Part shown: in pieces, positions 7,973-59,933 of the stretch
Layout: each line of letters opens with the position of its first letter
Position numbering within the stretch: position 1 is the first letter of the stretch
Assembly: GCA_964619875.1 (NCBI GenBank)
Contig: CAZUFU010000001.1
Span: 1 to 61,911 of the forward strand
Direction: 5' to 3'
Source of the DNA: an uncultured Oscillospiraceae bacterium
GTDB taxonomy: Bacteria > Bacillota > Clostridia > Peptostreptococcales > Anaerovoracaceae
DNA length: 61,911 nucleotides
Notes under the pieces: model-generated
Seen by the model: only the letters and a program-made list of their open reading frames with translations
Database searches by the model: none
Told to the model about the DNA's origin: nothing
Position numbers and translations under genes: made by a program

Positions 7973-9073
7973 ATGAAAAAAGTATTAACCTTGGCACTGA
8001 CTGCAGTGCTTTGCCTTGGCCTTGTATTCATGACAGGCTGCGGAGGAGGCAACATCGAAATGCCATATTCCGGATATGATCTGACGGAATATGTAACGCT
8101 GCCTGATTATGACAGCTATACCACCCAGAAGCCTGATGTCACCATCACAGATGAGGATATAGACGCGGCAATCGACGAAGTTCTGGCCCAGTATCCTACA
8201 ACGGAAGAGGAAACTGAAGGTGTTGTAGAGAAAGGCGATAAAATCAGATATTCCTACAAAGGAACTCTGGCAGATGGTTCTACTACAGACGGTATGAATG
8301 CCGACAATCAGGAGATGATTCTGGGACAGGCAAGCATGATTGACGGTTTTCAGGAGGGAATGTACGGGGCAACCATAGGCGAGCCTGTGACTCTCAATCT
8401 GAAGTTCCCTGACCCTTATCCCAATAATGAGGACCTGTCAGGTAAAGACGTCACCTTTGTGGTTACTGTAAATGCCAAACTTGTGGACGTTCCTGCCGAG
8501 CTTACAGATGATTTTGTAAAAGAACACAGCGACGAAAAGAATGTGGCGGACTACAGAAAGAGCATGGCTAAGCAGCTTGAAGAAGAGGAGACCGAAGAAC
8601 AGCTTTACAACCTCAAAACCAAGATATGGAATCAGATTGTAGCTGAGACTGAAATCACCGAGGTAATTGCCCTAGAGGTGGACAGCAAAGTTGAGATGTT
8701 CAATACACGATATGAAAAGCTTGCAGAACAGCAGGGCATGGAGTGGGAAGAATTTCTCGATGAGTACTTCAAGTACGATACAGATGAATATAATGAGCAG
8801 ATCAGACTTTATGCGGAAAGCATGGTAAAGACGGAAATGATTGTCTATGCTGTCGCTCAGAAGGAAGGTATCGAAGTTTCCGAAAAGGAATATGAAGAGC
8901 AGCTTAGCAGCATTTTGACAGCTTATGGCTACTCTGACAAGGAAAGCTTTGAAGATGCGGCAGGAATGGCTCTGGATCAGTTTGCTGAAGAGCAATATTC
9001 ACTTAAACTGAACCTGTATCTGGAAAAAGTGCTGGATGTAATTTATGACAGAATAGCTAAAGACGCGGAATAG
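7973..9073 (+). CDS. Lipoprotein trigger-factor paralog (FKBP-type PPIase plus TF C-terminal arm domain, no ribosome-binding N-domain)
   Basis: Lipobox FMTGCGG. TF-like middle region VTITDEDIDAAIDEVL...EKGDKIRYSYKGTLADG...MIDGFQEGMYGATIGEPVTLNLKFPDPY...LSGKDVTFVVTVN..ELTDDFVKE. Confidence 0.75.
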   Translation: MKKVLTLALTAVLCLGLVFMTGCGGGNIEMPYSGYDLTEYVTLPDYDSYTTQKPDVTITDEDIDAAIDEVLAQYPTTEEETEGVVEKGDKIRYSYKGTLADGSTTDGMNADNQEMILGQASMIDGFQEGMYGATIGEPVTLNLKFPDPYPNNEDLSGKDVTFVVTVNAKLVDVPAELTDDFVKEHSDEKNVADYRKSMAKQLEEEETEEQLYNLKTKIWNQIVAETEITEVIALEVDSKVEMFNTRYEKLAEQQGMEWEEFLDEYFKYDTDEYNEQIRLYAESMVKTEMIVYAVAQKEGIEVSEKEYEEQLSSILTAYGYSDKESFEDAAGMALDQFAEEQYSLKLNLYLEKVLDVIYDRIAKDAE

Positions 9074-13683: not shown

Positions 13684-13712
13684 AACCCCGGACACAGGTC
13701 GTCCGGGGTTTT
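13684..13712 (+). terminator. Intrinsic terminator after the BceB-like gene
   Basis: AACCCCGGAC / GTCCGGGGTT stem followed by TTT. Confidence 0.8.
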
Positions 13713-13785
13713 GAGCATATTTTTGCCTGCGTTGAATATAATATATCATTACATTAAAACCCAAAGGACAGCGGGAGGACAAGGT

Positions 13786-14037
13786 ATGCTGAGCACAGAT
13801 AAACTTAAGAATAAAGAAGTCATAAATATTTATGACGGCAGGAGCGTAGGCTTCGTAAGCGATATAGAGGTGGATCTGGAAAAAGGGGTTATAGGAGGAA
13901 TAGTCATCCCGTCGGAGAGAGGCTTTCTGGGATTATTCGGACGAGGTGAAAACGACATACTTATCAAATGGGAAAAAGTAAAAACCGTAGGCGATGATGT
14001 GATTTTAGTGGACTTAGGACCACAAGATGTGGTATAG
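13786..14037 (+). CDS. YlmC/YmxH-family sporulation protein (PRC-barrel)
   Basis: Family-like sequence LKNKEVINIYDGRSVGFVSDIEVDLEKGVIGGIVIP. The start is set at the ATG after GGGAGGA. Confidence 0.8.
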   Translation: MLSTDKLKNKEVINIYDGRSVGFVSDIEVDLEKGVIGGIVIPSERGFLGLFGRGENDILIKWEKVKTVGDDVILVDLGPQDVV

Positions 14038-41263: not shown

Positions 41264-41293
41264 TTGACATGACGTAAAACTTTGTTGTATAAT
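41264..41293 (+). promoter_or_regulatory. Near-consensus sigma-A promoter for the 75-aa membrane protein gene
   Basis: TTGACA (41264-41269), an 18-nt spacer, then TATAAT (41288-41293). Confidence 0.6.
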
Positions 41294-41340: not shown

Positions 41341-41568
41341 ATGAAAGATTTTTTGAAGGACAGGCTTCTGATTGATTTTGACGGGAGCTGGAATTTGAAT
41401 GAAATCATTGCGGCTGCTGTTTGTGTGATTCTGGCAGTACTGATAGTGCTGGTTTTGATTAAGCTTGTAAGGAAAATTATAAAAACTGCTAACCCTAGAA
41501 AGGACACTATTTTCAGCCATCGCAAGAATAAATATAAGAATAGCATAGGAAAAAAGAACAAGTATTAG
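41341..41568 (+). CDS. Small single-pass membrane protein with a Lys-rich tail (75 aa, unknown function)
   Basis: Strong promoter, RBS AAAGGTAAG, one TM helix (IIAAAVCVILAVLIVLVLI), basic C-terminus, strong terminator. Confidence 0.6.
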   Translation: MKDFLKDRLLIDFDGSWNLNEIIAAAVCVILAVLIVLVLIKLVRKIIKTANPRKDTIFSHRKNKYKNSIGKKNKY

Positions 41569-41586
41569 AAAAACCGATTATGTAGG

Positions 41587-41609
41587 CCCCGCTTGAAAGC
41601 GGGGTTTTT
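41587..41609 (+). terminator. Intrinsic terminator
   Basis: CCCCGC / GCGGGG stem, 6-nt loop, TTTTT. Confidence 0.85.
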
Positions 41610-41624: not shown

Positions 41625-42785
41625 TTAAAATCTGAACCCGTTTGTTTCGCAGCACTGGCATGCTGGAATCTGGCTTATCGTCTGACGTCTGCGTCTGTCG
41701 CCATCATCATCCTCATCAAAGCAGCGTTCCGAATGAGGTGCACAAGGGTCACACTGCCCCAGATTATCGCAGCATACATCTACTTCCTCGGCATTAAGAG
41801 CAAATAATGAAGGCCTTACGACCTGAAGATTGATCTTAGGAGTGAACACAAGACTTCCGGTTACCCTTACATCTCTTGACGGACAGTCTTCTTCAGATGC
41901 TTCGGATACGGTTATTACAGGATTGAGAAGAACTGCACAGCCTTCGAAATTGAAGCGGAGAGCAGGAGCTATACCCTGACTCTGGCAAGGTATTCTTACA
42001 CACTGCAGACCGAAATTGCTGGAAGCTCTTACCGTTACAGGGCATCTGCCTGTGGAGTCATTTCTGGTTTTGATACAGAGTTTAAACTCTCTGGTACATG
42101 TGCCGTTGGAAACAAAACCTTCCAGAACTATGGTGAAAAGCAGTTCCCAAGGCCCAGGGACCTCTGCCAGGAAGAAGTGTTCATCTCTGTCGCAGTCCAT
42201 GTCGCAGTCATTATCGCAGCGGCGGTGTGAGCAGCTGTCGTCGCAGATGTGTGTACATCTAGGTGTGCAAGGGCATCTTGTTATATCGGCCATAATTCCT
42301 GAAAGGTCTGCGAAGTATCTGCCGTTTTGAAGATCCAGATCTGTAACAGGGAATCCGTCAATAGTCACATCATCAGCATCGAAGGAGGAGTTTCTCGCCT
42401 GAACAGCCGAAGTGATGGTTACACAGGAGTTGGTTACTGTAAATTTTGCATTGCACAGATTGAAGTCGCTGCATCGTGTCATATTGCGGTTCCAGTCGCG
42501 ATCCCAGTCGCGTTCTCTGCACCTTCTGCAGTCACAATCTCTATCTCTATCTCTATCTCTATCTCTATCTCTATCTCTATCTCTATCTCTATCTCTATAT
42601 CTATATCTGTCTCTGTCTCTGTCCCTATCCCTGTCTCCGATGATGAGCTGCTGAGTAAAGCCTGAAGCGGTAGTGGACAGCGGCACGATCAGAGGACATG
42701 AAGATCCGGTATCATCGAAAAAAACCTTGTTAAGAAACACAAGATTTTCCGTAGTACAATTAGAATCGTTTTCTAAAAAACCCAT
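41625..42785 (-). CDS. Cys-rich protein with a (Asp-Arg)n tract, no signal peptide (unknown function; possibly a spore-surface protein)
   Basis: 386-aa ORF with GAGGT RBS. I count 31 Cys. The tract is DR x5, YR x2, DR x10, then DCDCRRCRERDWDRDWNRN. A second acidic Cys cluster is CDDSCSHRRCDNDCDMDCDRDE. Confidence 0.75.
   Translation of the reverse strand: MGFLENDSNCTTENLVFLNKVFFDDTGSSCPLIVPLSTTASGFTQQLIIGDRDRDRDRDRYRYRDRDRDRDRDRDRDRDRDRDCDCRRCRERDWDRDWNRNMTRCSDFNLCNAKFTVTNSCVTITSAVQARNSSFDADDVTIDGFPVTDLDLQNGRYFADLSGIMADITRCPCTPRCTHICDDSCSHRRCDNDCDMDCDRDEHFFLAEVPGPWELLFTIVLEGFVSNGTCTREFKLCIKTRNDSTGRCPVTVRASSNFGLQCVRIPCQSQGIAPALRFNFEGCAVLLNPVITVSEASEEDCPSRDVRVTGSLVFTPKINLQVVRPSLFALNAEEVDVCCDNLGQCDPCAPHSERCFDEDDDGDRRRRQTISQIPACQCCETNGFRF
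42537..42638. repeat. Hexanucleotide microsatellite: (ATCTCT)10 perfect plus 7 degenerate units
   Basis: Read directly. The perfect tract is 42537-42596, and degenerate units (ATATCT, GTCTCT, GTCCCT...) run to 42638. It encodes the DR/YR tract on the minus strand. Confidence 0.95.
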
Positions 42786-42919
42786 TTTTTAATTACCTCA
42801 TTTCATAAATATAGGTATTGTCATTATATGCTGTGACACTGCAGCTGGTGCGGAAGGCGGGCAAGGGAGAATTACCACATTTTAGTGGGGATATTTTTTA
42901 AATAAACCCAATTTTTATA

Positions 42920-42950
42920 TTGAAAAGTGTTTAAAAGTGGTGTATAGTGG
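42920..42950 (+). promoter_or_regulatory. P(mraZ) with three phased MraZ boxes
   Basis: TTGAAA (42920-42925), a 17-nt spacer, then TATAGT (42943-42948). AAAGTGT (42924), AAAGTGG (42934) and ATAGTGG (42944) occur at an exact 10-bp period. Confidence 0.55.
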
Positions 42951-43003
42951 TAGTATAGAAACTTACATTGGATTATTGTCATTTTATACAGGAGGCTGCA
43001 GCC

Positions 43004-43435
43004 ATGTTCATGGGCACATCTTACAACTCAATAGATGAGAAGAACAGAATGATTGTGCCTTCTAAACTGCGTGCGGGACTGGGAGCAAGGTGTATTCTAA
43101 CGAAGGGACTGGATAGATGTCTTTACATTTACACCTCTGAAGACTGGGACAAGCAGATGGAGAAAATCGCTCAGCTGCCGGAATCAGATCCCAAGGTCAG
43201 AGCTTTTATCAGACACTTCTGCGCCAATGCAGCAGAATGTGAATTTGACAAACAGGGAAGAATAATAATACCGCAGGAGCTTAAGGCGTATGCCGGCATT
43301 GAAAAAGAACTGGTTACCATGGGAGCCATGTCCAAGATAGAGGTATGGAGCCGTGAGGTATGGGATTCACCGGATAACGAGAGCAAGATGGAAAACGAGG
43401 ATTTTGCCAGAGCTCTGGCGGAATATAATTTCTAA
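43004..43435 (+). CDS. mraZ: Transcriptional regulator MraZ
   Basis: [23 protein letters not shown] and a second SpoVT/AbrB-like repeat, [12 protein letters not shown]. Confidence 0.95.
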
Positions 43436-45071: not shown

Positions 45072-47051
45072 ATGAAAGCACCGGTAAATTTAGTACATAA
45101 GAGAAGAGTAGCGATAGGGTTCTTTATTGTTGCCCTGCTTATGGTCGCCCTTACGTTCAGAGTTGCGTGGATTCAGATTGTAGATGCCGAAGAGTACACC
45201 GAAAAGGCCATACTTCAGCAGACGAACGATACGGCTATTCAGGCCAAGAGAGGTATCATATATGACAGAAACGGCAAGGAACTGGCTACCAGTACCACAT
45301 GCTATACTCTCTGGGTATGGCCGTCCCAGTTTACATATGAAAAGACCGATGCCGAAATAAAGGAGATGTGCGGCAAAATAGCCGAAATCATAGATAAAGA
45401 CGAGGAAAAGGTTCTTCAGAGCGCTACGAAGGATACTCTTATGGTTTCTCTGACAAAATACCTCGACAAGGAAACTGCAGATAAAATCAGGGCATTGAAA
45501 TACAGCGGTCTTGAGCTGGCAGAGGGCACCAAGAGAAACTATCCTCTCGGGAATTTTGCATCTCAGGTTCTGGGAAGTGTAAATGACGATAATCAGGGCA
45601 GAACAGGCCTTGAGCTTCAGTATGATGAATTTCTCAGCGGAGTGCCGGGAAGATGGGTTAAAAACACCGATATTTCCGGAAACGAGCTTGTAGAAGGCCG
45701 GGAAGAATATCACGAGGCACAGGATGGACTCAATGTGGTTACCACTCTCGACGAAGCAATCCAGTACTATGTGGAGAAGGCTATAGATGAGGGTATGGAA
45801 AAGACCGGGGCCAAACGCATAATGTGTCTTGTTATGGATCCTAAGACGGGGGACATTCTGGCCAGTGCCGTTACACCGGGGTTCGATCCTAACAACGCCA
45901 CTGTGCCTACAGATGAAACATACGCTGAGGAATACGAAAAAGCAAAGAATAAATCTGAAGTTTTATCAAAGATGTGGAGAAACCCCATAGTCAGTGATAC
46001 CTATGAGCCGGGGTCAACTTTCAAACTAATTACCGCATCCTCAGCAATTGAGGAAAAGGCTATCACCACTACGGAAACCTTCAGCTGTAATTCACGTATT
46101 ACCGTGGCAGGTGTTACTCTCCACTGCTGGAGCAATACAAACCACGGTACGCAGACAATCAAACAGGCTGTAGGAAACTCCTGCAACCCTGTAATGGCCA
46201 AGGTTGCTACCAAAATGGGAAAAAAGACGTTCTATAAATACCTGGATCTGTTCGGCATAACGGAGAAGACCGGTGTGGATTATCCGGGAGAAGCAGGTGC
46301 AATCGTACAGAGCCTTGAAAACGTAGGTCCTGTAGAGTTAGCTACTATAGGATACGGCCATGGTATTTCTGTAACTCCTATACAGCTGCTGACTGCAATC
46401 AGCTCCATCGGAAACGACGGTGTACTGATGCAGCCGCGTTATGTAAAGGCTTTGACCGACAGCGAAGGCAAGATTGTAGAGGAATATGAACCTAAAGTAG
46501 TGAGAAAGGTGCTTTCCACCAAGACTGCCAATGAAATGAAGGAAATCATGGAGTACGTGGTTGCCGAAGCAGGCGGTGGAAATGCCAAGATTACAGGCTA
46601 CAGAATCGGAGGCAAGACGGGTACAGCCAACAAGGTTGAAAACGGAAGCTACGGTAAGAATTACTACAGTTCATTTGTCGGAATGGCACCTATGGACGAC
46701 CCTAAGGTTTCCATTCTCGTAGTAGTTGACAGCCCGAAGGGCTCATACTACGGCTCCATCGTAGCTGCACCTATTGCCAAGTCCATACTTTCAGACGTGC
46801 TGCGCTATATGAACATTACGCCTGAATATACCGACGCGGAAAAAGCGGCTATAGAAGGCAACTACACTGTAGTGCCTGATGTTGTCGGCAAGGAGTTCAG
46901 CGAGGCGGCAGGCATTCTGGGAGGCAAAGATCTTAAGTACAGCCGTCCTAAGTCGGCCAGAGACGATGACAACTTTACCGTTGTGGATCAGTATCCTAAG
47001 GCGGGAACCAAGGTTAAAAAGAATTCAGTGGTCTATGTCTACAAGGAATAG
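45072..47051 (+). CDS. Class B PBP of the divisome (FtsI/PBP2B/SpoVD-like) with a C-terminal PASTA domain
   Basis: Motifs STFK, SCN and KTGTA. The PASTA-like tail is VPDVVGKEFSEAAGIL...VVDQYPKAGTKVKKNSVVYVY. Confidence 0.9.
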   Translation: MKAPVNLVHKRRVAIGFFIVALLMVALTFRVAWIQIVDAEEYTEKAILQQTNDTAIQAKRGIIYDRNGKELATSTTCYTLWVWPSQFTYEKTDAEIKEMCGKIAEIIDKDEEKVLQSATKDTLMVSLTKYLDKETADKIRALKYSGLELAEGTKRNYPLGNFASQVLGSVNDDNQGRTGLELQYDEFLSGVPGRWVKNTDISGNELVEGREEYHEAQDGLNVVTTLDEAIQYYVEKAIDEGMEKTGAKRIMCLVMDPKTGDILASAVTPGFDPNNATVPTDETYAEEYEKAKNKSEVLSKMWRNPIVSDTYEPGSTFKLITASSAIEEKAITTTETFSCNSRITVAGVTLHCWSNTNHGTQTIKQAVGNSCNPVMAKVATKMGKKTFYKYLDLFGITEKTGVDYPGEAGAIVQSLENVGPVELATIGYGHGISVTPIQLLTAISSIGNDGVLMQPRYVKALTDSEGKIVEEYEPKVVRKVLSTKTANEMKEIMEYVVAEAGGGNAKITGYRIGGKTGTANKVENGSYGKNYYSSFVGMAPMDDPKVSILVVVDSPKGSYYGSIVAAPIAKSILSDVLRYMNITPEYTDAEKAAIEGNYTVVPDVVGKEFSEAAGILGGKDLKYSRPKSARDDDNFTVVDQYPKAGTKVKKNSVVYVYKE

Positions 47052-47089
47052 GACCTGAGCATAAAATATATCTCGGAGGTAAATTGAAA

Positions 47090-52448: not shown

Positions 52449-53567
52449 ATGGAAAAAAAGACAGGTAAAAAACAACATACAGGTGATCTGTCCGTGGTGC
52501 TGCTTGTGACGATTCTGACCATCTTCGGAACCATCATGATTTTCAGCGCCAGCTATTACTATGCCATCAGCAACTTCGGTGATCCGTACCATTACCTGAT
52601 AAGGCAGCTCATCTGGCTGGCGGCAGGCTTTGTGGCCATGTGGATATGCTCTAAAATAGATTATCACTTCTGGGTGCGCTTCTGGCTCATAGCATATGTG
52701 GCAGGTATGGCGCTGCTGGTGCTGGTTCTTATTCCCGGCATCGGTTCGTCTGCCTACGGTGCGACCAGATGGATACAGCTTGGGCCTATAACCATAATGC
52801 CTGGAGAAATAGCCAAGGTAGGAATAATTCTGTTTATAACCGGATATTTTTCACGCCACCCGAAATGGGCCTCAGATATTAAAAAGGGCATAATACCTAT
52901 ATTGTTTGTCACAGTGATTTATGCAGGGCTCATCATGCTTCAGCCTAACATGTCTACGGCCTTTACCATATGCTTTATTGTAGGCGGCATGCTGCTGGTG
53001 GCAGGTGCTAAATGGATTCATCTGGGTACCCTGGCAGGAGGAGCAGTTGCCGCAGGCGTGCTGCTTATTCTGGTTGACACATCCGGTTACAGATATCAGC
53101 GATTTTTAAGCTTTCTTGACCCTTTTGAGGATCCGCTTGGATCAGGATGGAACGTTGTCCAGTCCCTTCTGGCCCTTGGAACCGGCGGACTGACAGGTCT
53201 TGGGCTGGGAAACAGTGTACAGAAGAATCTTTATCTGCCAATGCCGCAGAACGACTTTATTCTGGCTATAATAGGCGAGGAACTGGGATTTATCGGAATT
53301 CTGGGCCTTGTTATATTGTACCTGCTTCTGGTGTGGAGAGGGTGTCATATCGCTATTAATGCAAAGGACCTGACGGGTCTTCTTCTTGCTGCAGGCATTA
53401 CCATCATGGTAGGAGTGCAGGTAGTCATCAACATGGCGGTTGTGACCTCATCAATGCCGCCGACAGGTATTATTCTGCCTTTCGTAAGCTACGGAGGCAA
53501 TGCGCTGCTGATTTTTATGGCAGCAATGGGAATTCTGGTTAACATATCCAGATCTGCGGATATCTGA
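52449..53567 (+). CDS. ftsW: SEDS peptidoglycan polymerase FtsW/SpoVE
   Basis: 10-TM SEDS protein with the motifs QPNMSTA and PFVSYGG. Confidence 0.9.
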   Translation: MEKKTGKKQHTGDLSVVLLVTILTIFGTIMIFSASYYYAISNFGDPYHYLIRQLIWLAAGFVAMWICSKIDYHFWVRFWLIAYVAGMALLVLVLIPGIGSSAYGATRWIQLGPITIMPGEIAKVGIILFITGYFSRHPKWASDIKKGIIPILFVTVIYAGLIMLQPNMSTAFTICFIVGGMLLVAGAKWIHLGTLAGGAVAAGVLLILVDTSGYRYQRFLSFLDPFEDPLGSGWNVVQSLLALGTGGLTGLGLGNSVQKNLYLPMPQNDFILAIIGEELGFIGILGLVILYLLLVWRGCHIAINAKDLTGLLLAAGITIMVGVQVVINMAVVTSSMPPTGIILPFVSYGGNALLIFMAAMGILVNISRSADI

Positions 53568-56840: not shown

Positions 56841-56879
56841 TAAGGATAATTGGGAACAATCGAGGAGGTAAGATTGAAA

Positions 56880-58037
56880 ATGCTGCAATTTGATACGAAT
56901 TTAGAGAAATCAGCAGTCATTAAAGTCGTAGGCGTAGGCGGCGGCGGATGCAATGCGGTAAACCGCATGGTGGAGGCCGAGCTTAAGGGCGTTGACTTTA
57001 TTGCTGTTAATACAGATAGACAGGCCCTCAACAGATGTGTGGCCGAAACCAAGGTTCAGATAGGAGAAAAGCTCACCAGAGGACTGGGAGCAGGTGCCAA
57101 TCCTGAAATAGGCCAGAAGGCTGCTGAGGAAACTTTGGACGAGATTACATCTCTTCTTGACGGAACCGATATGGTATTTATCACCGCCGGAATGGGCGGC
57201 GGCACCGGTACAGGAGCTGCTCCTATTATAGCTAAGGCGGCCAAGGATATGGGTATACTTACAGTGGGCGTTGTCACAAGACCGTTCTCATTTGAAGGAG
57301 CCAAGAGAAAGAAACAGGCAGACCTGGGAATCAACTTCCTGAAGAAATACGTTGACTCTCTGGTAATCGTTCCGAATGACAAGCTCCTTCAGAACTGCGA
57401 AAAAAACACTTCGATGATTCAGGCTTTCCAGATGGCTGACGATGTGCTCAGACAGGGCGTGCAGGGTATTTCAGACCTTATTTCGGACTTTGCTCTCATC
57501 AATGTGGACTTTGCCGATGTTAAGTCAGTTATGACAGACAGAGGAGTTGCTCATATGGGCGTAGGCAGAGGAACCGGCGAAAACAGAGCTAAGGATGCAG
57601 TAAAGAGTGCCATCGAGAGTCCGCTGCTTGAGACTACCATTGAAGGCGCCAAGGCTATTCTCCTTTATGTGGCAGGCGGATACGATCTGGGAATGCTGGA
57701 GGTAAGCGAAATCGCAAGTCTTGTTGAGGAACAGGCCGACAGAGACTGCATACTCATCTTCGGTGCGGCAGTAAACGAAGAAATGCAGGATGAGATAACA
57801 ATTACCGTTATTGCCACCGGCTTCGATGAAGGCCTTGAGGGTGCTGCAGGAGGCGGCAAGGCAGCCGCAGAAAAGCCTGCAGAAGAGAACCAGCAGAAGC
57901 AGGGACTGGGCGGATATGATGATGTTTTCGGCAGAGTTGAAGGCCTTGAAGGCAAGGAGGTTACACTTCAGGACATCCTTCAGAAGGAAGAAGAGGAAAA
58001 AGGAACTTCACGGTTTGAAATTCCGAGTTTTCTGTAG
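56880..58037 (+). CDS. ftsZ: Cell division GTPase FtsZ
   Basis: [13 protein letters not shown] and [13 protein letters not shown] follows GAGGAGG. Confidence 0.97.
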
Positions 58038-58047
58038 ATAATAAACC

Positions 58048-58072
58048 AAGCCGGCTTATTCGCCGGCTTTTG
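58048..58072 (+). terminator. Intrinsic terminator after ftsZ
   Basis: AAGCCGGC / GCCGGCTT stem followed by TTTG. Confidence 0.85.
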
Positions 58073-58114
58073 TGGTAATAGTGAAGCGAAAAAAACGAAA
58101 GGAGAAAGAGCCCT

Positions 58115-58885
58115 GTGAGGACCATAAGCTCTAAGGACAATAAAATATTCAGGCTTTGTCAGCAGCTTTCCCAAAAGAAATACAGGGATAAACTGGGGCT
58201 CTATCTCATTGAAGGTGAGAATCTTCTGGAGGAGGCCGTCAAGAACGGAGCAGAAATAAAGACCGTTCTGGCAAGACCTGATTACGGAGGCAGTTTCTTC
58301 GGCACAGAGGATAAAGCCTTTTTCCTTGACGATAATCTGTTCAGGCAGCTTGCTCAGACGGAGACAAGTCAGGGAATAATAGCAATAGTTGCAAAACCCG
58401 AAATTTCCCCGGCCCGATTTTTGGATGAAGGAGGCGGCGGGAATTTTGTCGTTTTAGACAGGCTGCAGGACCCGGGCAATATCGGCACGATTTTAAGGAC
58501 TGCCGACGCTGCGGGCTACAGGCTTGCAATAATTTTAAAGGGCACGGCTGACGTGTTCTCATCTAAGGTAGTAAGGGCGGCGACCGGTTCACTCTTTAGA
58601 ATGCCGGTTGTTTTCATGGACTCCGTAGATGAGCTGATGGAATTTACCAGGGCAGCCGGCAAAAAACTCGTAGCGACCTGTTTCGACACAGACCGTTACT
58701 ACTACGATGAGAACCTTAAGGAGAACATCGCTCTCATAATCGGAAATGAGGGGAACGGTATCTCCCGGGAACTTATCGAAGGCTCAGATGTGAAAATAAA
58801 GATTCCTATGCACGGAAATATCGAATCGCTTAACGCTTCCGTGGCAGCAGGGATTTTAATGTATGAGGCTGTAAGGCCCCAATAA
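58115..58885 (+). CDS. TrmH/SpoU-family RNA 2'-O-methyltransferase (YsgA/RlmB-like)
   Basis: LQDPGNIGTILRTADAAG, IIGNEGNGIS and ESLNASVAAGILMYE. GTG start. Confidence 0.85.
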   Translation: MRTISSKDNKIFRLCQQLSQKKYRDKLGLYLIEGENLLEEAVKNGAEIKTVLARPDYGGSFFGTEDKAFFLDDNLFRQLAQTETSQGIIAIVAKPEISPARFLDEGGGGNFVVLDRLQDPGNIGTILRTADAAGYRLAIILKGTADVFSSKVVRAATGSLFRMPVVFMDSVDELMEFTRAAGKKLVATCFDTDRYYYDENLKENIALIIGNEGNGISRELIEGSDVKIKIPMHGNIESLNASVAAGILMYEAVRPQ

Positions 58886-58910
58886 AATTCGGTAGAAAGG
58901 TTTAACGAAA

Positions 58911-59933
58911 ATGCAGGAAAGATTAAAGCAGATTTTAGAAGAATCAAAGAGACAGTTACAGGAAGCAGCCTCTGTTCAGGATGCCGAGGATGTCAGAGTA
59001 AAGGTTCTGGGCAAGAAGGGACAGCTGACAGAAATCCTTCGTTCCATGGGACAGCTTGCTCCTGAGGAAAGAAAGGAGCTTGGCCAGGCGGCAAACCAGG
59101 TTCGCTCCGAGGTGGAAAAGATGCTGGAGGAAACTTTTGAGAATCTTAAGAGTAAGGCAAGAGAGGCCAAGTTCAAGGCCGAAAAGATAGATGTTACAGA
59201 ACCGGGCAGATTGTACAAGCTGGGAACCAAGCATCCTGTAACCATTACCATTGAAGAAATTTCAAGAGTGTTCAAGTCCATGGGCTTTACCCTGACAGAG
59301 GGACCTGAGGTTGAAACCGTTTTTAACAACTTCGATGCTCTTAACGCAGGCCCTAATCATCCGGCCAGAGACTGGACAGACACTTTCTACGTAAATGATG
59401 ATGTGCTTCTGAGAACTCAGACTTCACCTGTACAGGTAAGGACTCTGATGAACCAGAAGCCTCCTATCAGGGTTTTTGCTCCGGGAAGATGCTTCCGCTG
59501 CGATACTCCTGATGCTACTCACTCACCTATGTTCCACCAGGTTGAAGGTCTCGTTGTAGATGAGGGAATCACTATGGCGGATCTTAAGGGAGTACTGGAC
59601 AGCTTCGCTAAGCAGATGTTCGGTCCTGAGGCGAGGACCAAGTTCAGACCGCATCACTTCCCGTTCACAGAACCGTCGGCAGAAATGGACGTTTCATGCT
59701 TCAAGTGCGGCGGAAAGGGCTGCAAAGTGTGCAAGGGCAGCGGCTGGATAGAAATTCTGGGCTGCGGAATGGTACATCCTAACGTACTTAAAGTGGGCGG
59801 AATCGACACAGAAAAGTACACAGGTTTCGCTTTCGGTATGGGCGTTGAAAGAATTGCAATGCTCAAGTACGGAATCGATGACATCAGACTGCTGTACGAA
59901 AATGATATGAGATTCATCGAGCAGTTCAAGTAG
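58911..59933 (+). CDS. pheS: Phenylalanine--tRNA ligase alpha subunit
   Basis: Class II motifs FRCDTPDATHSPMFHQVEG and GFAFGMGVERIAM. Confidence 0.97.
   Translation: MQERLKQILEESKRQLQEAASVQDAEDVRVKVLGKKGQLTEILRSMGQLAPEERKELGQAANQVRSEVEKMLEETFENLKSKAREAKFKAEKIDVTEPGRLYKLGTKHPVTITIEEISRVFKSMGFTLTEGPEVETVFNNFDALNAGPNHPARDWTDTFYVNDDVLLRTQTSPVQVRTLMNQKPPIRVFAPGRCFRCDTPDATHSPMFHQVEGLVVDEGITMADLKGVLDSFAKQMFGPEARTKFRPHHFPFTEPSAEMDVSCFKCGGKGCKVCKGSGWIEILGCGMVHPNVLKVGGIDTEKYTGFAFGMGVERIAMLKYGIDDIRLLYENDMRFIEQFK

Follow-up and report, generated by a model that had tools for sequence, protein, structure and literature searches.

The gene and its locus

The analyzed DNA is a stretch of 61,911 nucleotides (positions 1 to 61,911 of contig CAZUFU010000001.1, assembly GCA_964619875.1; this whole stretch is referred to below as the window) from an uncultured bacterium assigned to the Anaerovoracaceae. 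On its minus strand, at 41625..42785, an open reading frame (ORF) with an ATG start encodes a cysteine-rich protein of 386 amino acids. The protein contains 31 Cys (8.0% of residues), together with 13% Asp and 11.7% Arg. Neither a signal peptide nor a transmembrane helix was found in it, the highest Kyte–Doolittle mean over 19 residues being 1.2. A ribosome-binding site, GAGGT, lies at 42795..42799 on the same strand, and GAGGT or GAGGA is present in most orthologous loci. In these properties (the ORF, its 386 codons, 31 Cys, the missing signal peptide and transmembrane helix, and the GAGGT site) the initial annotation of the window was accurate.

The coding sequence, which is monocistronic, was supported by its homologues and by the ratio of nonsynonymous to synonymous substitution rates (dN/dS). 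Compared with relatives, this ratio ranged from 0.02 to 0.11 in the folded core and from 0.06 to 0.33 in the linkers. The gene is real and under strong purifying selection, and a spurious ORF was ruled out because of the low values in the core. A mobile or phage origin was likewise rejected, since synteny is kept within a core chromosomal region.

Directly after the stop codon, a GC-rich hairpin terminator (41584..41607) is common to the cysteine-rich gene and to a small convergent ORF at 41341-41568 (+). This ORF encodes 75 amino acids with one transmembrane helix and a basic tail, and is preceded by a promoter-like site with a perfect TTGACA-18-TATAAT (41264-41293). It matched no family and is kept in about 27 of 38 loci.

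A sigma-K-type promoter conserved among orthologues

Upstream of the cysteine-rich gene, the pattern AC-N17-CATATAAT was matched exactly at 42823-42849 on the minus strand. For comparison, the upstream regions of 38 orthologous loci and of the window were aligned on the start codon. Most loci share the motif tttTCACC-N15/16-G-CATAtAaT about 35–48 nucleotides (nt) upstream of the ATG, and the sigma-K consensus AC-N17-GCATATAAT is kept upstream of the gene in nearly all 38. The -35 'AC' (42848..42849, minus strand), situated 17 nt before CATA, has A in 35 and C in 36 of the 38 full-length rows. The -10 element, G-CATATAAT (42823..42831, minus strand), lies about 45 nt before the ATG; CATA is present in 38/38 rows and the preceding G in 34/38. 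The 17 spacer positions between AC and CATA are near random across the 38 rows. Among orthologues, the promoter is kept while neighboring bases drift, as would be expected of a member of the sigma-K regulon.

The same motif precedes distant homologues with roughly 28–34% identity (L045/L047, L048 and L052), and a CATACATT variant was found at the distant homologue locus L049. A promoter that the initial annotation had noted in one sequence was thereby recovered in nearly all 38 loci and in four distant homologue loci. When 623 kb of sequence, drawn from the window and from flanks of up to 8 kb on either side of homologues, were scanned on both strands, the strict motif occurred 37 times, 33 of them before a gene of the cysteine-rich family.

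A similar sigma-K/E-like motif, AC-N17-CATAAAAT, was observed before murE (47041-47067, +), 21 nt upstream of the gene. It is unconserved beyond the closest relatives, is probably a chance occurrence, and serves as a negative control for promoter conservation.

In Clostridioides difficile, the mother-cell promoters described by Saujet et al. share a common -10 element, the -35 being ATA in sigma-E promoters and AC in those of sigma-K (PMC3789822); CATATAAT combined with AC is quoted there as a sigma-K promoter (PMC3789822). The window promoter corresponds exactly to this sigma-K consensus, as quoted for C. difficile (-35 AC, spacer of 16-17 nt, -10 CATA---T(A)). Conservation of this kind implies, as judged from the alignments, a cognate sigma factor in the host, and it is the strongest evidence for a sporulation-related role that the comparison provides.

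The -10 region also holds a perfect TATAAT, with TTCACC 18 nt upstream matching four of the six bases of a -35 hexamer, so that a sigma-A reading is possible. Under that reading, the gene would be transcribed vegetatively from TTCACC-N18-TATAAT, perhaps under MraZ co-regulation with the dcw operon, and its product would be a cytoplasmic cysteine-rich protein acting in metal or redox buffering or as a division-linked scaffold. Such a reading leaves unexplained the invariant G-CA before TATAAT and the lack of conservation of the TTG of a sigma-A -35 element, whereas the invariant G-CATA and AC are sigma-K determinants. A vegetative role is considered quite unlikely.

Distribution of the family

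A search with residues 102-386 returned 37 homologous clusters at 38–86% identity. Only three of the 37 are named, all as 'hypothetical protein' from metagenome-assembled genomes (MAGs) of Firmicutes/Bacillota, and none has a Pfam domain. An exhaustive hidden Markov model search of 1.8 billion representatives yielded 91 proteins at E<=1e-3, of which 41 reached E<=1e-30. At 50% identity, the family amounts to about 90 clusters; no cluster has a name other than 'hypothetical', and cultured strains contribute to none of them. An exact look-up of the window protein's own sequence returned no record. A second homologue search with a broad alignment was swamped by low-complexity words and gained little on distant members.

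When one genome per GTDB species was scanned, the gene was found in 38 species, all uncultured, labeled mostly as Clostridia, Bacillota, Anaerovoracaceae or Candidatus Fimisoma. Where genome records of the family are named, they are mostly uncultured MAGs of the Clostridia, Bacillota or Anaerovoracaceae. Three contigs carry discordant labels (L011, Bacteroides stercoris; L021, Bacteroidaceae; L022, Absicoccus). Their mraZ/cysteine-rich gene synteny is of the Firmicutes type, with MraZ/RsmH identity of 81–86%, and they are probably mis-binned.

Scans of the window protein against Pfam (E<=10), NCBIfam and PHROGs assigned no family, the library matches being limited to RS-domain splicing-factor and similar entries over a low-complexity Asp-Arg tract. 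No Pfam match at E<=1 was obtained for any of 49 diverse family members. PDB sequence searches, including one with the family profile, gave low-complexity matches and no relative. The structural comparison that the initial annotation had suggested, Foldseek with an AlphaFold2 model, yielded no match at E<=1e-3 in PDB or BFVD. By these searches, the protein founds a new family that lacks annotation and whose fold may also be new.

Protein architecture

The layout of the protein was derived from family alignments and from the AlphaFold2 model, which has a mean predicted local distance difference test score (pLDDT) of 70.5, with values above 90 in the core, a predicted template modeling score of 0.61, and 139 residues with pLDDT >=90. 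A conserved beta-rich core is broken by three hypervariable Cys-rich linkers. All coordinates in this section refer to the minus strand.

The conserved N-terminal segment, residues 12-50 (ENLVFLNKVF..SCP..FTQQL; 42636..42752), is predicted to form three strands packed on the core, with pLDDT of about 90. It is followed by hypervariable linker 1, residues 51-110 (42456..42635), which contains CxC/CGC motifs and the Asp-Arg tract; this region is predicted to be disordered (pLDDT <55), with alignment gaps above 90% over the tract. The first part of the beta core, residues 111-170 (42276..42455), has pLDDT of 83–95 and conserved FTVTNS and DG.PV motifs. A Cys/Asp-rich loop of variable length, residues 171-200 (42186..42275), follows with pLDDT <50; its C171, C194 and C198 are invariant among orthologues. 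The second part of the core, residues 201-335 (41781..42185), has predicted strands of up to 27 residues and pLDDT mostly of 85–96, with IPC, P274, NP, TP and RP invariant. After a conserved CCD.LGQCD motif come a hypervariable Cys- and charge-rich C-terminal linker, residues 336-375 (41661..41780), and the C-terminal tail CQCCETNGFRF (41628..41660).

Within the tail, T381 and N382 do not vary, and G383 and F386 hardly do. Its pattern, CQCC-x-TNGFRF, or ACQCC[DE]TNG[FY]RF in the fuller form, shows almost no variation and occurs in almost every complete orthologue. The tail is a candidate docking or cross-linking peptide.

About 10 Cys of the core are conserved. Overall Cys content ranges from 8% to 16.7% across orthologues, with 27 to 81 Cys in the complete ones. 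The most extreme orthologues (L032, L034 and L036; gene at 8001 onwards) have 59, 71 and 81 Cys, or 13–17% of residues, concentrated in expanded linkers.

Such free variation in the number and spacing of linker Cys is unlike a defined metal site, which speaks against a vegetative metal- or redox-buffering protein. No metal-cluster, metallothionein-type or redox family was matched, and the redox/metal alternative offered in the initial annotation gained no specific support. The roughly 10 conserved core Cys could still bind metal.

The Asp-Arg tract occupies residues 51-82 and consists of DRx5, YRx2 and DRx9, followed by DCDC; its presence had been recognized before, with the last run counted one unit too long (DR x10). 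At the DNA level, the tract consists of 16.8 tandem copies of a hexanucleotide, (GATAGA)n, at 42537-42637. Asp/Glu-Arg repeats occur only in the closest relatives and are missing from most orthologues; in P0001, P0002, P0003, P0005 and P0010 they are located in the C-terminal linker instead. By this distribution, the tract is a lineage-specific microsatellite expansion in a permissive linker, incidental and no feature of the family, and the prominence given to it in the initial annotation was not borne out.

Linkage to mraZ and genomic context

In each of the 36 species loci with enough sequence upstream of it, the cysteine-rich gene is divergent from mraZ-rsmH-ftsL and a penicillin-binding protein (PBP) gene. 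Among distant homologues, P0047, P0060 and P0065 are also divergent from mraZ, and P0058 is co-directional and directly upstream of it. Adjacency to mraZ holds to about 28% identity, and the gene on the opposite flank differs in each distant homologue. The cysteine-rich protein evolves far faster than its neighbors; at L027, for example, its identity is 36% versus 81% for MraZ. The linkage of this Cys-rich gene to mraZ is unusually stable.

Between the divergent promoters, a conserved CCCCAC-TAAAAT-GTGG element (42875..42890, minus strand) resembles an MraZ box and may bind MraZ. In one subclade (L015-19, L025, L027-36), the CACCAC element extends over the -35 of the sigma-K-like promoter. Closer to mraZ, three direct AAAGTG[TG]/ATAGTGG boxes with a 10-nt period (42923-42950, +) overlap the mraZ promoter TTGAAA-17-TATAGT (42920-42948) and are presumably MraZ operators. 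The mraZ ORF spans 42968-43435 (+) with a mechanical TTG start at 42968; the likely true start is the ATG at 43004, after GGAGG at 42991-42995.

Both the retention of mraZ as a neighbor while the other flank changes and the MraZ-box-like CACCAC element beside or over the -35 would fit the vegetative, division-linked role considered above.

A different environment was found for the most distant members of the family. P0116 lies directly after two PF12673 SipL/SPOCS genes, and the cluster around P0120 includes a glycosyltransferase, a number of small SPOCS-like proteins and a protein of CLIPPER x2 + SipL architecture. CLIPPER x2 + SipL is the architecture described for F-Anchor-3 of clostridial spore appendages, which has been proposed to fasten the appendages into the CsxA lattice (PMC12357932). 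In the AT-rich clostridial loci L043 (whole) and L041 (52-1758), several small SPOCS-like paralogues occur with a glycosyltransferase and a CLIPPER x2 + SipL protein, and these loci look like uncharacterized exosporium or appendage gene clusters.

Evidence bearing on sporulation of the host

Three kinds of sporulation marker had been listed in the initial annotation, and one of them held. The YlmC/YmxH-family protein (13711-14037, +; likely true start ATG 13786) scored 75 bits against a model cut-off of 44. No clear sporulation-type promoter could be assigned in the region upstream of its gene. The second kind did not stand: for 'SpoVE' (52449-53567), the FtsW cut-off is the only one reached, and the PBP 'SpoVD' (45072-47051) scores under the SpoVD cut-off, so that by these scores both are ordinary FtsW- and FtsI-type division proteins and not specific to sporulation. 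A YjcZ-like ORF was not found in a crude regular-expression scan.

Outside the window, spores have been imaged in an uncultivated member of the Anaerovoracaceae (PMC12357932), and a CsxA homologue (P0201) is on record from an Anaerovoracaceae MAG.

Proposed role at the spore surface

On the combined evidence, the protein is probably, though far from certainly, a structural component of the spore coat or exosporium, made in the mother cell and cross-linkable by disulfides. The spore-surface reading of the initial annotation finds comparative support in the conserved promoter and in the SipL/SPOCS and F-Anchor-3-like neighbors of distant homologues; the Asp-Arg tract and the SpoVD/SpoVE markers no longer contribute to it.

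The conserved promoter suggests that sigma-K RNA polymerase would transcribe the monocistronic gene in the mother cell late in sporulation. Because the protein has no export signal, it could be deposited straight onto the forespore from the mother-cell cytoplasm. The beta-rich core, with its predicted very long strands, may oligomerize into an ordered layer, and the three disordered Cys-rich linkers together with the CQCC-x-TNGFRF tail would supply many thiols. Upon lysis of the reducing mother cell, intermolecular disulfides would form and harden the layer; thiol/disulfide hardening is the mechanism proposed for CsxA, CdeC and ExsY/CotY. Fast evolution of the linkers would be expected of a surface-exposed part, and the Asp-Arg tract may have arisen as a local linker expansion through slippage of the hexanucleotide repeat.

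Besides the TATAAT embedded in the -10 region, several observations weigh against this assignment. The neighbors of the gene in the window are division and ABC-transporter genes, with no coat genes among them. Downstream of ftsZ, an rlmB-like methyltransferase gene and pheS follow (56850-59933), with no spoIIGA-sigE-sigG there; the missing sigE/sigG operon would also suit a vegetative protein. Most Peptostreptococcales MAGs from the gut were assigned to the non-sporulating class by a published predictor (PMC12536801). For the homologues in SPOCS gene clusters, the match to the orthologue profile covers only part of the core, with E values no better than about 1e-7 to 1e-5. Finally, sequence and profile tests detected no homology to CsxA or SPOCS proteins.

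A related possibility is that the protein belongs to another sporulation-associated assembly, such as a parasporal crystal or inclusion, or an anchor of spore appendages. Such an assembly would use the same sigma-K-type promoter, and CsxC is known to form parasporal three-dimensional crystals (bioRxiv 10.64898/2026.09.03.749163). The conserved aromatic C-terminal tail could be a docking peptide, and one distant member adjoins the F-Anchor-3-like gene described above. No appendage (DUF4183) or collagen-like genes were found near the window gene, and the present data do not separate this alternative from a coat or exosporium protein; it is considered very unlikely.

A more specific form of the coat or exosporium assignment combines it with the mraZ linkage. 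The family could constitute an independent, new-fold, disulfide-hardened spore-surface lattice of Anaerovoracaceae-like gut Clostridia, with its late-sporulation promoter wired physically, and perhaps functionally, to the mraZ control region. Such wiring would fit the retention of mraZ as a neighbor down to about 28% identity and the MraZ-box-like element over the -35 in one subclade. This combination is distinctly improbable as a whole. If true, it would link the division-operon regulator MraZ to synthesis of the spore envelope.

The outer layers of spores govern oxygen survival, transmission and adhesion of gut anaerobes, and the proteins that form them, identified in only a few cultured species, differ in origin from one lineage to another. 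If the spore-surface role is correct, the family would add an unannotated building block for uncultured Clostridia of human and animal guts. With its very clean sigma-K-type promoter, the gene would also be a marker of use in determining which of these MAG lineages still sporulate. A long-strand beta core with no detectable relative, combined with hypervariable Cys linkers, makes the protein a candidate self-assembling material.

Comparison with known cysteine-rich spore proteins

Three Cys-rich proteins without a signal peptide, CsxA and CsxC of Clostridium sporogenes and C. difficile CdeC, build exosporium or parasporal lattices (PMC7333573, PMC7677010, bioRxiv 10.64898/2026.09.03.749163), and all three have been assigned by structure to the SPOCS/DUF3794 fold (bioRxiv 10.64898/2026.09.03.749163). 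CsxA is thought to self-assemble and to cross-link through disulfides (PMC7333573). For the comparison, CsxA and CsxC sequences were taken from the supplement of PMC4942563, and a 38-sequence CsxA alignment was used as the profile.

Comparison of the family profiles with this CsxA profile by hhalign gave a probability below 1%, and the single-sequence comparison with CsxA gave E 0.48. Colinear motifs picked out by eye (KVFDQC vs KVFYDN; CKNLKVIVNSV vs CNAKFTVTNSCV) were unsupported by the profile-profile comparison. A 7-sequence SPOCS profile, built from the neighbors of distant members, reached 0.1% in hhalign. In precomputed Pfam assignments, PF27077 was given for all listed CsxA relatives and for no member of the cysteine-rich family. 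The CotY/CotZ/ExsY profiles gave no Pfam or NCBIfam match to the window protein.

A kinship beyond the reach of sequence comparison was also considered, in which the protein would be a remote member of the SPOCS/DUF3794-CsxA-CdeC superfamily, sharing its origin with the clostridial exosporium and parasporal lattice proteins and forming the same trimeric 'tripod' assemblies. The AlphaFold2 model of CsxA, with strands of 17-26 residues and a disordered Cys loop, is similar in style to that of the window protein, the two models together having strands of 16-27 residues. Secretin-type long hairpins are frequent in both of their Foldseek lists, neither of which is significant, and three chains (9u5s_A, 5wq8_A and 6i1y_A) are common to the two. 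These likenesses are a lead rather than a test. CsxA itself was placed in SPOCS by structure only (bioRxiv 10.64898/2026.09.03.749163), and distant family members adjoin SPOCS genes. The lack of a Foldseek match in PDB is uninformative on the SPOCS fold, because the PDB copy used contains no sequence that matches CotE. Set against the hhalign values, the empty Pfam result for the 49 members and the restriction of PF27077 to CsxA relatives, such a common origin is rather unlikely.

The protein is best described, by analogy, as a possible functional counterpart of CsxA and CdeC and not as a demonstrable homologue. Like CsxA (PF27077), a protein of the exosporium basal layer in Clostridium sporogenes/botulinum, it has no signal peptide, about 8% Cys, and a similar predicted build, in which very long beta strands are combined with a disordered loop rich in Cys. 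In contrast, CsxA has about 250–300 amino acids and lacks the ENLVFLNKVF segment and the TNGFRF tail, and its genes occur with collagen-like and glycosyltransferase genes, whereas the cysteine-rich gene adjoins mraZ.

CdeC, an exosporium morphogenetic protein of C. difficile and other Peptostreptococcaceae, is described as Cys-rich and is of comparable length (405 versus 386 amino acids). Short repeats of low complexity (NPC x6, CCRQGKGK x2) are found in it alongside disordered Cys regions that are sensitive to redox conditions, and it forms lamellae by self-assembly (PMC7677010). Going by the Anaerovoracaceae labels of several loci, its host and the present family belong to the same bacterial order. 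The motifs differ, as far as CdeC's published architecture, the sole basis of this comparison, allows (PMC7677010); a SPOCS-like fold has been reported for CdeC (bioRxiv 10.64898/2026.09.03.749163).

With the SPOCS/DUF3794 proteins (PF12673; SipL, SpoVID, CotE and CsxC), which are mother-cell proteins of the spore envelope, the family shares a beta-rich character, and they are encoded beside its distant members. The consensus IP..KPDI...EGQ.LSGKKL...IPF of those neighbors is, in contrast, missing from the cysteine-rich family. ExsY, CotY and CotZ of the Bacillus exosporium and crust are also Cys-rich and self-assembling, and build disulfide-stabilized lattices on the spore surface. They follow the same physical principle as that proposed here, with a smaller, unrelated alpha/beta fold (bioRxiv 10.64898/2026.09.03.749163).

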